Shown piece after piece: positions 38,427-50,174 of a stretch of DNA of 64,000 nt. Made by a program: the position numbers and the translations under genes. This DNA comes from a virus: positions 23,893-87,892 of the IMG/VR virus record IMGVR_UViG_3300045303_000221; one strand, written 5' to 3'. The notes beneath the pieces were generated by a model. That model worked only from the letters and a program-made list of their open reading frames with translations, was not told the origin of the DNA and did no database searches. The first letter of the stretch is position 1. Each line of letters begins with the position of its first letter.

Positions 38427-41400
38427 GTGGAGCCGCACGACGATCTGTCTGAGGCCGCTGGCGGAACGCCGCCACCGAAGCGTCGCGGTGGGCAGGGCGC
38501 GAACCAGGAGTTTGAGGGCGCGCACCCGCGATCGGCGAAGGGCCGGGTGGGCGGCGGCGAGTTCGCGAAGAAGCCCGGGCAGGGCGGCGCGGCGAAGCCG
38601 AAGATGCAGGCGGTGTCGGTCGCGTCGGCGCTGAAGGCGGCCGGGGTGAAGTCGATCGCCGAGTTCCAGAAGACGCGCGGGCTGCCGGTGACGGGCAGGC
38701 TCGACTCGCGGACGATGGTGGCGCTGCGCAACGCCTACGTCGCGCACCTCGTGGACTTGCAGTCCGGCGGTGGGACGGCGGCCGGGACGAACGCGGCGGC
38801 GAAGGCCGGGGTGACGCTCGGGCTGCACGACTACGCGAAGCGCGGGATGGGCACGAAGGCAGACCCGGACTCGCGCGTGAGCCGGGTGCAGCAGACCCTG
38901 GAGCGGCTGGGCTACGACGTGCCGATCGACGGCGTGTATAGCTCCGAGCTTGAGACGGCCGTGAAGCAGTTCCAGGCCGACCACGGACTGCCCGCCACGG
39001 GCGTCGTGAGCGTGCAGACGCTGCGGCAGATGGACAAGCTCCACTCGCAGCGCGACGCCGGGAAGGAGCCGGGCGGCGGCCTGTCGGCGGACACGCCGGG
39101 CACGAAGCACCGGGTCGGCACGGACGAGGTGAAGTCGCTCGCGAACCGGGCACGCGCCGGGCGGATCGCGCGCACCGGCCGGGTGGCGGCGACGGTGAAG
39201 ACGACCACCCCGAAGGCGAAGGCGAAGCCGACCGGCACGAAGCCGCGCAAGCCGCCTGCGACGACGGCCGTGAAGATCACCCAGGCAGCGGTCGATGAGC
39301 CGGACGAGGCGCGCTTCGACGCGCTCGTGATCGACGGCGAGGAGGTCGAGCCGACGGACGTGACGACGCTCCCCTGGTGGGACGAGGACGAGACGTTCGC
39401 GCAGGAGGCGGCGATCGACTGGCGCGAGGTGCTGCACCCCCGGAACCGGCTCGGGAAGTTCCGGCGCGTGTTCGGCGACCCGCGCCCACAGACGCACACG
39501 CAGCGGCTGGTGGCGGAGCCGCCGGTGCAGACGCGGCGCACGGCCGGGAAGCTCGGGGCGCGTCGCACACGGCGCGAGACGCCGGTGCCGGACCAGTGGG
39601 GCCAGAAGCTGATCGAGCACGCCGAGTGGAGCGACAAGGACAACAAGTGGCTCCAGGAGGGCGGGGTGCTGGCGACGGTCACGCACCTGGCGACGGCGCA
39701 CCGCTGGCCGAGCATCGCGCCGTTCCAGGGGTTCGACGCGAAGTCGCTGCGCAACTCGGAGGGCGAGCTTCGGATCAGGCCGCCGCAGGAGGTGAACGGG
39801 CAGCGCATTTTCGAGCAGTGGTGGATCACGGCCGCGATCAGCGCGGCGAAGAAGGGCGTCACCGAGATGGTGATCGCGCACGAGGTGGGGCACATGCTGG
39901 ACGCATCGCTGATGCGCCCCGAGGACGGCCAGCCCGATCCGCGCAACAAGAGGATGGACTACCACTTCCACGGCAGCGAGGCAGCGGCGAACATGTCGAT
40001 CGAGACGATCGAGCGGCAGGGCTTCGCGATGTCGGCGGAGCAGCACGCGAGGTGGCGCGAGTTCCTGAAGATCGCCGTCACGCCGTCGGTGCTGGGGCAG
40101 ACGAAGTACGCGGCGAAGTACCACCGGTCGCCCGCCGAGTTGTGGGCGCGGGCGTATGCGCAGTGGGCGGCGTCCACGCAGGGGCCGCCGCTGGGGATCG
40201 AGCGGGCCGCGATTCCGGGCATGACGTGGCCTGCGGACGAGTGGGAGCCGGTCGGCCGGGCGGTGGAGTCGGTGCTTGGCAGCTACGGGCTGCTGCACAC
40301 GGACGGCGCGTTCAAGTGGGAGGTGCAGCCGGGCGGGATCGAGCCGCAGATCATGCCGGACGCGGCGCAGAAGACGATGAACGCTGTGCACAAGTTCATC
40401 GGCGACCAGCGGATGCACGGCGCGGCGCAGGCGCTGCAGGGCTTCGACTTCAAGTACGTCGATACGGTGGGCGGCGAGCACGAGTACGAGCGCGAGGTGG
40501 GTGGCGGTCTGCTCACCGGGTTCGTCAAGCCGAACGACCCGTCGATCCGGTGGGAGTTTGAGGCGGACGTGCAGGCGACGCCGCCGTATCAGCGGAGTCG
40601 GCGGGCACCGAAGCCGATGCCGGAGTACGTGCGGCAGGAGGGCCTGAACGCGGAGGCGGAGATGGAGTCGCGCGGGGTGCCGCCGATGGGCGTCCTGCTC
40701 GACCGCGGCTTCCGCTCCGAGGACTCGCCGTCGAAGGCGCACGCGGTGTACGCGAAGACGTTCCCCGAGGGGAAGCTGCGCGCCCGGTTCAAGCACGGCG
40801 AGCACAAGGTCGAGTGGAAGTGGGAGGGCGACCTGCCGGACATCACGTCGGAGGTGAGCGCGCCGCTGCCGGTGCCGCCGAAGCCGGAGTGGGTCCGACC
40901 GGATGATCCGGAGGGCGAGTCCTCGGACGAGTTCCTGGTGCGGATGGCCCGCGAGCGCGAGCGGACGATGACGTGGGAGCAGGAGGTGAAGCGGGGCCTC
41001 TCTGTTGGCCGGTGGACGGAGGCGGAGGCGAAGGAGGCTGGCTACCACACCCAGAGCCGCGGGGAGGGATGGGAGCCGCTGCCGGACGGGCCGCTGTTCC
41101 ACGTGACGACGGCCGCGAGCGCGGTGCGGGCTGGTGGGCTGAAGACACGGTACGAGCTTGCGCAGGGTTCGGGCGCAGGGCTGGGCGGCGGCGCGGAGGA
41201 CACGATCTCGTTCACCACGGACGAGACGATCGCGCGCGCCATCGCGCTGGGCCTGCGGGAGATGCGGATGGTCGCGCGCGGGGAGGTGTCGGCCGCCGAC
41301 CTGTTGCGGCACGCGGAGAACGGCACCGCGGCTGATAGGCCGTTCGCGACCGACCTGATCCGGTACTACGACTACGCGAACCGGGCGTGGTCGCCGGGAG

Positions 41401-47400: not shown

Positions 47401-50174
47401 AGGGCGGCTGGGATGCGGGCGTGTTCTTCCACGTGACGCCGCGCGAGGATGCGATCGAGCGGCAGGGCGCGGTGCTGCCGCGCGGCCACCAGGAGGACGT
47501 GCAGGCGCAGCACGCCTTCCCGGTCGATCCGGACGTTGTGTACCTGTGGCCGTCGGCGGCGAAGGCCGAGAAGCACGTCGGGTACATGGAGCGGCGCGGG
47601 GTGACGGGGTTGACGGTGGTGCCGGTGCACGCGGACGTGTCGCAGCTTGAGCCGGACCCGGAGCCGTTCCTGAACCTGTGGCGGCAGGCGTCCAACTACG
47701 AGGCGGTGGCGGGTGTGCGGCAGCGCGAGAACCTGCGCGAGCACGGCTATGCGGCGCTGGACGAGGCGCGGCACTACCCGGACCCGGTGAACCATCCGGA
47801 GGGCGAGACGCTGCGCGAGTACCTGGCGACGGTGACGCCGCCGTACGTGGTGACCTCCCCGAGCGACGACTACCCGCCGGAGATCCTGGCCGATCCGTGG
47901 ATCGAGGCGCGGCGGGTGCTGGCCGACATGCCGGTGGCGCTGCGCAGGGACGTGGCAAGGGTGTTCTCGCAGCACGGCGTGGCGGTGCTGGCCCGGGGTC
48001 GCCGTCCGCTCGCGGAGGCGGCTGTGGCGGCTCCCGAGGGCGAGTGGGACGTGATCGTGGCGAATGGCGTCCGGCGCGAGCACTTCGACGTGACGCTGAT
48101 GCCGTGGTGGCACGACCTGGCCGAGGCGAGCTTCGCGGAGCGCCTGCACCCGCGGGACCGGCGTGGCCGGTGGCGACGCGGCGTCAGCCACCTGGCGACC
48201 AGCCCGGCGGCCACCGTCTCTCGTCACGGCATCGGGACGAAGCGGACTCGGCGCGAGGTTCCGGGCGAGGCGGACATGGACCGGTTCGTGCGGCTCCTGG
48301 ACGACCGGTTCCATCGCGACCCGGAAGACCCCTACCCGTACGACGTGCCGGAGTTCGTGGCGGAGCGGGCGGCGTCTGCGCACCGGTGGCCGGAGGCGGC
48401 GTCCGACATGCTCCAGGGGATCGACATGGACTGGCTGTCGCCGGGCGTGATGGGGCAGTTCGCCGTGGACCTGGGCGAAGGCGAGTGGGCGGACGACCCG
48501 ACCTCGCCGACCGGGGTGCGGCTTGTGAGCGGCCCTGAGACGCTTGCGTGGATCAGGATCGACCCGCGGTCGATGCCGGAGCGCGAGGGCGACCCTGCGT
48601 ACTTCGGGCCGGTGCTGGCGCACGAGTTGGGGCACCTGCTCGACACGTCGCTGGCGAAGCAGGCCGGTCAGAGCGCGTGGCGGTCGGACGAGGGGCACGA
48701 CGGCGAGTTGAACGGCGCGTCGATCATGGCGGCCCTCGACCCGCCCGACCGGCGGCTGACGGACGCGCAGGTGGCGGCGTGGCGCGGGTTCTTCAAGGCG
48801 GCCGTCACCCCGAGCGTGGAGGCGATGCCGAACCCGCGTTACAACCGGTCGCCGGACGAGTTGTTCGCGCGGGCGTACGCGCAGTGGATCGGGACGACCA
48901 TGCGCGATCAGATGGAGCGCGAGTTCCAGGATGCGCCGGAGGGGATGCACCGCTGGCCGCCGGACGAGTGGGAGCCGGTGGGCGCGGCGCTGGAGGCGGT
49001 GCTGGACGAGTTCGGGCTGCTGTACGACCACCCGGATCACCGGTGGCTGGCGGAGAGCTACGTCGCGCGGCAGCATCCGCGCGACCGGAAGGGCCGCTGG
49101 CGACTGGTCGCCCCACACGTGATCGCGAAGGCGATCGAGCTACGCAACGCGCCGGGCGAGGGTCGGCAGGGGACGCGCTACGCGAGGCCGACGGGCGACC
49201 CGGAGACGGGGAAGGTGCTGCACGGCGTCGGGACGCTGCTCGACCGGGCGGCCGAGAAGCAGGGCCGGACGCGGCGCGAGTTGGACGCGAAGCTCCAGTC
49301 GCAGGTGGAGCGCCTGGTCGGCCCGGAGTCGGGGACGGTGCCGATGATGCGGGTGCGGCCGGGGTCGCTGCGGTTCGCGTTCCGGACGTGGCACTTCCCG
49401 AACGCGCACGAGTCGCCGCCGGAGCCGAAGGAGACGTACCGGGGTGCGGACTACCGGAAGGCGCGGGCGCGGAGCGAGCGCGACTGGTTCGGGATCAGCC
49501 CGAGCGCGCCGCCGGAGCACTTCCCGCACTACGGCTACATGGCGCGGCCGGACGAGGAGGACTGGCTCAAGAACCTGGTCGGCGGGTTCGGGAAGATCAG
49601 GGTGCGCCTGAAGCCGCAGACGCGCGGCCGGACGACGTTCACGTACTCGGACTCGCTGTACGTCGGCAGCCACGACGACTCGATCGTGCCTTCTCCGGTC
49701 GATGAGCCGAAGGGCTACAGCGTGAGCGCCACGTCAGCGTTCTTCGTGCCGTGGCTGGAGCACGTCGCGCGCCCGCTGGTGAAGACGACGCGCGAGCAGC
49801 CGCCGCTGACGGCAGAGGAGGAACGGGACCTGGCCGACTGGAAGCGGTACGGGCGGCACGTGATGGACCGGCAGACGGGCGAGGAAGTGCGGCTGTACGG
49901 CGACGACCTGGTGCCGGAGTTCATGCGTCGCCGCGCGCAGCGGCTGGAGGACGAGGGCGTGTGGACGGACGCGACCTGGGACGATTTCTTTGAGGCGCAG
50001 ATCCACGGCGGGGTGGAGTGGGACGACGTGGACGGGATCGACTTCCCCGAAGACCCCGGCGAGGACGTGCTGCGCGAGTTGGCGCAGCGGAACATCTCGT
50101 TCACGATCGCGGCGGAAGCGGTAGAGTCTGCGTCAGATCGCGCCCGGCGAGTGATGGAGAGGCTGCAAACGTGA
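38427..50174 (+). CDS. giant polyvalent protein (3915 aa): PG-binding, 4 zincin peptidases, ART-like domains, GNAT, CCA-adding enzyme + HD, DUF3626-like
   Basis: HExGH at about 39879, 42423, 45867, 48621; RRQGIATAL; [29 protein letters not shown]; EAQIHGG; 8 HPR tags; leaderless TAGAGT-N6-GTG. Confidence 0.92.

Follow-up and report, generated by a model that had tools for sequence, protein, structure and literature searches.

Why should a phage string a dozen or so enzyme domains into one polypeptide, and set nearly the same short peptide before one module after another? The question is raised by a 64,000-nucleotide window, the last 64 kb of an 87.9-kb linear IMG/VR virus record (IMGVR_UViG_3300045303_000221), in which a giant open reading frame (ORF; positions 38427-50174) encodes a 3915-residue protein, here called P0001. 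An earlier reading made from the letters of the DNA (the sequence-only reading) took this protein for a polyprotein that is matured by the phage's head protease into separate enzymes. On the comparative evidence presented below, that is still the best-supported reading: P0001 is very probably a virion-associated polyvalent effector protein, and we give a probability of about 0.5 to the complete explanation, namely that a packaged polyvalent chain is cut at its junctions by the prohead protease and that the repeated peptide, or tag, serves as a recognition peptide.

The tag and the modules behind it

The ORF proved to be open throughout, as had been claimed, with a G+C content at third codon positions (GC3) of 0.94 along its whole length. 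Its canonical tag, [WFY]-x3-[LQ]-HPR-[DN]-R-x-G-[RK]-[WF], occurs in seven copies, each scoring 35-45 bits against a general tag model. Of the eight tags counted by the sequence-only reading, these seven are canonical, while the eighth, near the N-terminus at residue 33, is a variant that the model left unscored; the variant is conserved in the homologue from G001, a related record of 127.5 kb, and resembles the variant tag of the zeta-toxin gene upstream. At 38523-38564, 34975-35016, and 51180-51218 the tag is of another subtype, HPR-x(2-3)-G-(K/x)-F-A-(K/A)-K-P-G, which coexists with the HPRDRRGRW subtype in one phage. Among tags with identical residues, third-codon identity is 0.47, and this synonymous divergence indicates that the peptide itself is conserved, under selection. 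Since synonymous sites differ, we also rejected the idea that the tags are alike because of gene conversion or a recent duplication of DNA.

P0001 contains at least 12 domains, including two peptidoglycan (PG)-binding domains, four zincins, a GNAT acetyltransferase domain, a CCA-adding tRNA nucleotidyltransferase, an HD domain, a probable ADP-ribosyltransferase (ART)-fold domain, and a DUF3626-like domain (Table 1). With the exception of the ART fold, these had been named by the sequence-only reading in the same numbers, and Pfam and TIGRFAM models, paralogy, and homologues supported them. The four zincins are paralogous (30-36% identical), all keep HExGH and an invariant downstream Glu, and their C-terminal helix matches Pfam LPD1 (1.2e-10). 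Neither PF18818 (MPTase-PolyVal) nor PF18760 was among the Pfam matches of P0001 at E ≤ 0.1, and PF04233 (Phage_Mu_F) gave no match at that threshold. The CCA enzyme is matched over nearly its full length (TIGR02692 positions 27-454 of 466), with PolyA_pol_RNAbd also matched, and scores 134.9 bits, below the equivalog cut-off of 438.8. Regions homologous to the GNAT domain occur in G001 and in proteins P0012 and P0082, the last of which passes the Pfam cut-off, and the DUF3626-like domain is also found at the N-terminus of a 4153-residue post-portal protein of G001.

Three stretches had been called ART-like, and one of these calls found support. When the first domain of module 6 was modelled with AlphaFold2 (AF2), most of its top 50 structural matches were ARTs, its neighbours being the CNFy ART-like domain, Rhs ART toxins, the catalytic domains of diphtheria and pertussis toxins, Tpt1, and PARPs. 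The best Z score was only 5.7 (root-mean-square deviation 3.7, 96 aligned residues), so the model points, at low Z, to an ART fold; Y-R, S, and E columns are invariant among 12 sequences of the domain. The other two stretches, the second half of module 6 and the C-terminal domain of module 2 (residues ~840-1140), gave no ART match. The latter has the invariants LFH-x-T, GLGGG, and D-x-x-S-F-T, and searches of Pfam, PDB, and ART profiles returned no match to it; when it was aligned by hhalign with the ART-fold alignment, only the tags matched. Since it has no Pfam or PDB match, it would appear to be an unnamed polyvalent-protein domain. PDB sequence searches with module 6, with the module-2 C-terminal part and its profile, and with the 490-residue head protein discussed below gave no useful match.

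The tags stand at the edges of these modules. In 10 of the 11 other proteins in which the N-terminal side of the CCA/HD module is present, the domain begins 11-21 residues after HPR, and often another tag is found 18-49 residues past the domain end; around the other P0001 modules, tag placement in other tagged proteins is similar, if less regular. A tag fell inside a module match only in P0032, where a split jackhmmer match joins two separate regions, and apart from that match no domain was found to span a tag. Tag segments were of low confidence in both AF2 models. In that of module 6, the predicted local distance difference test (pLDDT) score was 35-48 over the tag and 74-96 over the adjacent domain, a difference that speaks against the tag belonging to the adjacent fold. 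It had been suggested that segments cut at the tags should fold independently; the ART-fold domain gave a confident model, and that of module 3 was poor (pLDDT 45.9) and gave no Foldseek match at E ≤ 0.001. We also considered the tag as a part of the zincin domain, and this was ruled out since it precedes non-zincin modules as well and occurs in phages without the zincin.

It had further been claimed that every module boundary coincides with a tag. This is true of the modules as the tags define them, but two or three domains are joined without a tag inside several of these modules, and the tag between the GNAT and CCA domains has decayed to a vestige. A comparison of orthologues for gain or loss of modules at tags had been put forward, and exchange of modules at the tags was observed in G001 and at two other loci, L091 and L040. 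The syntenic gene of G001 encodes only about 960 residues, with the variant tag and two PG-binding domains followed by a tag, GNAT, and a zincin. At L091 a tag and CCA/HD stand alone, in an ORF that reaches the end of the locus sequence six residues past the domain, and at L040 a tag and another module come after CCA/HD. On the other side, protein P0101 joins CCA, GNAT, the module-2 C-terminal domain, and the DUF3626-like domain without any tag. Given these arrangements and the vestigial GNAT/CCA tag, modules travel as tag-headed units, whether by fusion or by fission, and tags are not obligatory and can decay once junctions become internal.

The tag in other phages

Although the sequence-only reading treated the tag as a property of this phage, it is instead widespread among phage polyvalent proteins. 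A tag profile (36 columns, from 35 tags) was searched against 1.84 billion cluster representatives and matched 610 protein clusters at E ≤ 1e-3, 92 of them at E ≤ 1e-10; P0001, on which the profile was partly trained, was the best match and is thereby the top-scoring multi-tag protein of that set. Most of the matches listed contained 2-7 matched tag stretches, with 15 in two proteins of 7334 and 5313 residues, and in the sequences of the matches the motif stands between successive modules. The two longest proteins, P0069 and P0074, are encoded on the same 409,570-bp NCBI contig and consist mostly of repeated ART-like and 'FKAWFG...VVYHGT' modules. Across 385 tags the consensus was [AE][AG]-x-[WFY]-[DNE]-[EP]-x-[LKQ]-H-P-R-[DG]-[RE]-x-G-[RK]-[FW], with H, P, R, and G conserved at 97-100%, and the spacing from tag to tag had a median of 301 residues and a minimum of 56.

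At the DNA level, the pattern HPRDRxGR[WF] was found at 71 viral-contig loci. Matches were counted as tag-like when they lay inside a long ORF with an aromatic residue four or five residues before HPR; 27 of 73 viral matches were tag-like, many of the viral-contig tags lying at residues 12-90 of proteins of 1000-2242 residues, as compared to only 2 of the first 120 matches in cellular genome contigs. The tag is far commoner in viral than in cellular contigs. A chance origin of the tags was ruled out by the few tag-like cellular matches and by the other reading frames of the giant ORF, in which no flanked tags were found.

A Pfam census of 44 multi-tag proteins was headed by PG-binding (11), PG_binding_3 (6), and CCA/HD (5) domains and also included ART-PolyVal, ADPrib_exo_Tox, zeta toxin, HicA, NUDIX, 2H, and GNAT; its 25 commonest families included none that mark conjugation. 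HicA and zeta occur in 2 of the 44 proteins each, and the zeta kinase is tagged in the phage studied here; toxin-antitoxin-type toxins seem to be regular tag-bearing cargo. Of the proteins and loci examined, 13 others also have a complete CCA-adding enzyme with HD, placed right behind a tag in nearly every case, which suggests that injected tRNA 3'-end repair may be a common phage counter-measure.

Iyer et al. (2017; PMC5512222) described phage-type polyvalent proteins, which combine two to fifteen effector-type domains per polypeptide, are encoded in late or packaging gene contexts, and were predicted to be delivered to the host and processed into units. P0001 resembles them in its many effector-type domains (metallopeptidase, probable ART, PG-targeting, GNAT-like) and its head-gene context; the zeta kinase is among the domain types common to that class and the tagged proteins described here, and the LPD1 model that matches the P0001 zincins comes from the same study (Iyer et al., 2017; PMC5512222). 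What sets P0001 apart from the described polyvalent proteins is the conserved tag and the site before it, which punctuate the chain. The text of Iyer et al. (2017; PMC5512222) contains no word beginning with 'HPR', no 'linker', and no 'CCA'. A second class, the MuF polymorphic toxins of temperate phages, places variable toxin or enzyme modules on a portal-adjacent head protein (Jamet et al., 2017; PMC5576092). Several multi-tag proteins are like these, with MuF-like Cys/His motifs at the start of or inside P0012, P0013, and P0029 (found by reading the sequences), whereas P0001 itself lacks a MuF domain; the text of Jamet et al. (2017; PMC5576092) does not mention a conserved motif, a linker, cleavage, or HPR. 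NCBIfam holds no model for the tag, and our searches of a limited literature, these two texts included, found no description of the motif. We take the tag-bearing proteins to be phage-type polyvalent proteins (Iyer et al., 2017) with a junction grammar that had apparently gone undescribed.

Possible processing of the chain

The portal gene lies 10 kb upstream of the giant ORF, and the protease/scaffold and capsid genes lie 11-13 kb downstream, all on the same strand, so that the giant ORF is situated inside a head-morphogenesis block. Before five of the seven internal P0001 tags there is a site of the form h-x-E-[A/S] (h, hydrophobic), with Glu 7-9 residues before HPR, and a sixth tag has A-Q-E-A. 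The same pattern precedes the tags of neighbouring genes and relatives (L-R-E-A, L-A-E-A, V-M-E-A, L-Q-E-A), and among 414 internal tags of other proteins there is a sharp maximum of the site with Glu at -8 (58 cases vs. about 3-8 at most positions nearby). The 490-residue putative prohead protease and scaffold encoded at 60994-62466 contains 17 h-x-E-[AGS] sites, compared to 3.1±1.6 in shuffles (z 8.5-8.7), the highest among 21 ORFs, and its G001 homologue (110447-111940, minus strand) contains 19 where 3.0 are expected (z 9.7). Reversed, Asp-containing, and register-shifted versions of the motif were not enriched in the protease/scaffold proteins. In the capsid protein, F-E-A and L-Q-E-A occur within the first 28 residues and are conserved in G001. 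The h-x-E pattern is that expected of a prohead protease of the type of T4 gp21, which cleaves behind Glu residues and breaks down the scaffold. The presence of this pattern before tags, in the protease/scaffold protein, and at the capsid N-terminus favours cutting by the head protease.

We therefore propose the following. P0001 would be a chain of host-directed enzymes that is loaded into the capsid and probably delivered with the DNA. Each junction would consist of an h-x-E-[A/S] site followed, 7-9 residues on, by the tag, and the phage's own prohead protease, with a seeming preference for h-x-E/[A/G/S], would cut at these sites inside the prohead to release about eight proteins, each with its tag 6-8 residues from the new N-terminus. 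Such mature ends would resemble the product of the next gene, in which HPR begins at residue 9, and single-tag proteins elsewhere, many of which start 12-18 residues before HPR. The tag itself would most likely be a recognition peptide for a conserved head component, acting in loading, retention, or ejection, and probably not the cut site. From sequence comparisons we infer that the chain is packaged and cleaved, which protease cuts it, and what the tag does, with unequal confidence: the balance tips slightly towards processing at the junctions, whereas the head protease as the enzyme responsible is a candidate at somewhat less than even odds.

Several observations weigh against this proposal. 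Two of the seven internal tags lack the strict site (A-Q-E-A at residue 337, none at residue 2780), and about 19 more h-x-E-[AGS] sites lie inside P0001 modules. In other lineages the site is present at only 23-29% of tags, and it is therefore best seen as a lineage-specific addition to a universal header. The protease assignment of the 60994-62466 protein is weak (phrog_15531, E 0.023), and amphipathic scaffold helices could account for part of the h-x-E-A enrichment. The AF2 models that separate tag from domain were shallow (6 and 12 sequences), and P0101 manages with no tags at all. Finally, P0001 includes four intact zincins, the class that Iyer et al. proposed for self-processing.

This last point opens an alternative that we consider unlikely, in which the chain is processed by its own four HExxH metallopeptidases; cutting, in cis or in trans, would take place close to or at the tags and either precede packaging or follow injection. 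All four keep HExGH and the downstream Glu, and all 7 internal tags adjoin a zincin module (of the 70 ways to order four zincin and four other modules, 5 do so); moreover, Iyer et al. (2017; PMC5512222) argued for autoproteolysis by metallopeptidase (MPTase) domains, citing P1 DdrB. However, both this zincin family and PF18818 are missing from five other records of tag-bearing phages (two at least 98% complete), which weighs against zincins as the general processing enzyme, and HExxH is absent from most of the multi-tag proteins inspected. Four copies at such low mutual identity look more like cargo with separate targets, and the pre-tag site matches the motif enriched in head proteins.

We hold equally unlikely that the chain is never cut and acts at full length, like the N4 virion RNA polymerase (vRNAP), with the tags as multivalent docking or anchoring peptides for the portal, the capsid interior, or DNA, or as the inherited headers of once-separate genes, kept for avidity. 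Typical cleavage sites are shorter and far less conserved than the tag, which in many proteins sits at the natural N-terminus, where there is nothing to remove; the N4 vRNAP and some plasmid polyvalent proteins are indeed transferred uncut (Iyer et al., 2017; PMC5512222). Yet a single docking peptide would suffice, whereas all seven tags are under purifying selection and the internal GNAT/CCA tag has decayed. This alternative also leaves the conserved h-x-E-A site before the tags unexplained, and ejection of a 420-kDa chain through the tail would presumably be hard. That P0001 is not a virion component, and instead a late intracellular multi-enzyme for cell-wall or tRNA manipulation in lysis with tags as folding or solubility linkers, is very improbable: the PG-binding domains and the endolysin-like genes further downstream could suggest a lysis role, but the gene is part of the head block, portal genes of unrelated phages are followed by tagged proteins (directly so at three independent loci, L066, L054, and L079), the tagged zeta module matches a minor-head-protein PHROG, P0137 has a weak, below-cut-off Phage_Mu_F match alongside the MuF-like motifs of several tagged proteins, and a viral-enriched, almost invariant peptide is unlike a passive linker.

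Returning to the packaged and cut chain, precedents are found in phage T4, where the internal proteins and Alt reportedly carry a capsid-targeting sequence and the gp21 protease is said to cut after L/I-x-E. The short N-terminal targeting peptide of T4 lies upstream of the cut and is lost with it, and the scaffold has many such sites at which it is broken down. P0001 is like the T4 cargo in that it would supply head-packaged, injected proteins, an ART among them, with a short loading peptide and hydrophobic-x-E sites; it differs in that the site lies 7-9 residues before the tag, so that the tag would stay on the mature protein. T4 cargo is also encoded by separate genes rather than as a polyprotein and has no sequence similarity to P0001. 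In giant phages (SPN3US, phiKZ-like), many ejection proteins are reported to be cleaved by the essential prohead protease at head maturation (PMC7411985, PMC10052503). As there described, these are head-internal proteins that enter the host and are matured by a prohead protease, as is here proposed from sequence for P0001; they differ from it in phage lineage and head size. We know of no conserved header peptide shared among them. Encapsulin cargo-loading peptides, which are short and usually C-terminal, bring unrelated enzymes into an HK97-fold shell. The tag is likewise a short conserved peptide on unrelated enzymes, in its case with loading as a supposition, but encapsulin peptides are unrelated to it in sequence and are not repeated within polyproteins. 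More tentatively still than for the protease, we suggest that the HPR header serves tailed phages in general as an address label for head cargo: a conserved head component (portal, shell interior, or scaffold) would read it near a free N-terminus, an enzyme that bears it would be loaded and then delivered to the host, and lineage-specific head-protease sites just upstream would turn polyproteins into sets of labelled cargo.

The locus, its relatives, and wider meaning

The window comes from an uncultured phage with a genome of roughly 120 kb and about 70% G+C, and CheckV estimates the record to be 74% complete; nearly all genes of the window are on the plus strand (Table 1). Since the best model of the CCA enzyme is of actinobacterial type, and considering the base composition, the sequence suggests an actinomycete host. 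The protein of 28287-31451 has no Pfam or PHROG match. In the portal and capsid proteins, h-x-E-[AGS] sites are also above expectation (9 vs. 3.4 and 4 vs. 1.4, respectively). At 38415-38429, TAGAGT lies 6 nucleotides upstream of the giant gene's GTG. There is no visible Shine-Dalgarno sequence, as would fit a leaderless transcript that starts from the gene's own -10 box. At the other end, the gene's TGA stop codon and the GTG start codon of the following gene overlap.

The standalone tagged genes at 50171-51758 and 54778-56789, of the kind from which the giant gene had been supposed to grow by fusion, are present, one of them (51069-51758) with a variant tag. Outside the giant ORF, a clear tag is present in at least five neighbouring genes and a variant in three others. 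Clear tags occur in the genes at 50171, 54778, 56253, 18249, and 34579, and the variants include those of the gene at 51069 and of the minus-strand ORF of 17789-18361.

Table 1. Positions in the window of P0001, its tags and domains, and other genes discussed in the text
Feature	Position	Strand	Remarks
ORF with variant tag LHRRNRIGEF	17789..18361	-	
Distant gene with two tags	18249..19844	+	HPHDRRGRF; HPHGRGGRF
Portal protein	26411..28303	+	phrog_10963 2.8e-27; 64% identical to G001 portal
Large post-portal protein, MuF position	28287..31451	+	Homologous to G001, L079, and L091 post-portal proteins
Tagged zeta-toxin-kinase protein, LHPRGRGGKFAKKPG	34579..36762	+	Zeta_toxin 2.4e-20; phrog_16619 minor head protein 5.6e-13
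Giant ORF, tag-punctuated polyvalent protein (P0001)	38427..50174	+	3915 residues; GTG start, TGA stop
Tag 1, variant, residue 33	38496..38552	+	Conserved in G001 homologue; unscored by general model
Two PG_binding_1 domains, module 1	38604..39041	+	Pfam 4.4e-23, 2 stretches
Tag 2, HPR residue 337	39408..39464	+	41.3 bits; A-Q-E-A upstream
Zincin 1, HEVGH residue 485	39564..40346	+	Paralogy, motif
Module-2 C-terminal domain	40944..41846	+	Joined to zincin 1 without tag; homologous modules in at least 8 other tagged proteins
Tag 3, HPR residue 1190	41967..42023	+	40.7 bits; V-Q-E-A/S, E at -8
Zincin 2, HEMGH residue 1333	42114..42881	+	LPD1 match on helix, residues 1410-1428; then small alpha/beta domain
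Tag 4, HPR residue 1654	43359..43415	+	40.0 bits; V-V-E-A/V, E at -9
GNAT acetyltransferase domain	43494..43826	+	Pfam 2.3e-4, below cut-off
Vestigial tag between GNAT and CCA	43938..43982	+	Aligns exactly to intact pre-CCA tags of L091 and P0012
Class II CCA-adding tRNA nucleotidyltransferase and HD	43986..45311	+	TIGR02692 3.1e-39; PolyA_pol 2.4e-13; HD 1.4e-5
Tag 5, HPR residue 2330	45387..45443	+	45.1 bits; V-M-E-A/W, E at -8
Zincin 3, HEMGH residue 2481	45549..46337	+	Then small C-terminal domain, as behind zincin 2
Tag 6, HPR residue 2780	46737..46793	+	39.1 bits; no h-x-E-[AGS] site within 20 residues upstream
ART-fold domain, first domain of module 6	46839..47348	+	AF2 pLDDT 74-96; 8+5 homologues
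Second half of module 6	47379..48071	+	No homologues, no Pfam match; AF2 pLDDT <50
Tag 7, HPR residue 3241	48120..48176	+	38.6 bits; L-A-E-A/S, E at -8
Zincin 4, HELGH residue 3399	48279..49049	+	Paralogy, motif
Tag 8, HPR residue 3550	49047..49103	+	35.4 bits; L-A-E-S/Y, E at -7
DUF3626-like domain	49143..50126	+	PF12294 9.5e-4; homologous module in P0137 matches PF12294 at 2e-9
Standalone tagged gene, HPR residue 9	50171..51079	+	Own GGAGAGG ribosome-binding site; tag at natural N-terminus
Standalone gene, variant tag LHPRSHGKFAAKPG	51069..51758	+	
Standalone tagged gene	54778..56256	+	L-R-E-A before tag; phrog_13953 on C-terminal part
Standalone tagged gene	56253..56789	+	L-R-E-A/S before tag
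Putative prohead protease and acidic scaffold	60994..62466	+	490 residues; phrog_29592 2.9e-6; phrog_15531 'head maturation protease' E 0.023
Major capsid protein, truncated by window end	62961..64000	+	phrog_133 3.2e-48

In the INPHARED phage collection, searches at the DNA and protein levels gave no match to the portal region, the gene's first 8 kb, or module 3; no cultured close relative is available. A search of loci with module 3 alone returned one distant locus, whereas the alignment of all four zincins led to G001; a search for homologous proteins of similar length with module 3 found none. Most of the other proteins compared between the window and G001 are about 30-64% identical, and the capsid proteins about 80%. 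Since the last 92 residues of the 50171-51079 gene product (50801-51079) are 90% identical to a 166-residue G001 protein (121186-121683, minus strand), exceeding the identity of the other compared proteins, a recent exchange of this piece is suggested. The 4153-residue post-portal protein of G001 (6649-19107, minus strand; loci L015-L016) starts with the DUF3626-like domain and contains a homologue of the 28287-31451 protein; a loose tag pattern found no HPR tag in it, and it is therefore a giant multi-domain protein without the header.

The proteins that phages carry in their heads and inject are mostly unknown outside a few model phages. If the proposal is true, the injected effectors of hundreds of phage lineages, metagenomic phages included, could be recognized straight from sequence by a near-invariant header; here the cargo would comprise a complete CCA-adding tRNA repair enzyme, zeta and HicA toxins, ARTs, and peptidases, and the window's relatives show modules exchanged at the tags. 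The long-standing proposal that polyvalent proteins are processed into units would also become testable, with defined sites (h-x-E/A and the header). The header would then be the tailed-phage counterpart of the encapsulin cargo-loading peptides and of the T4 capsid-targeting sequence and, if loading is confirmed, could serve to direct selected proteins into phage capsids in the laboratory.

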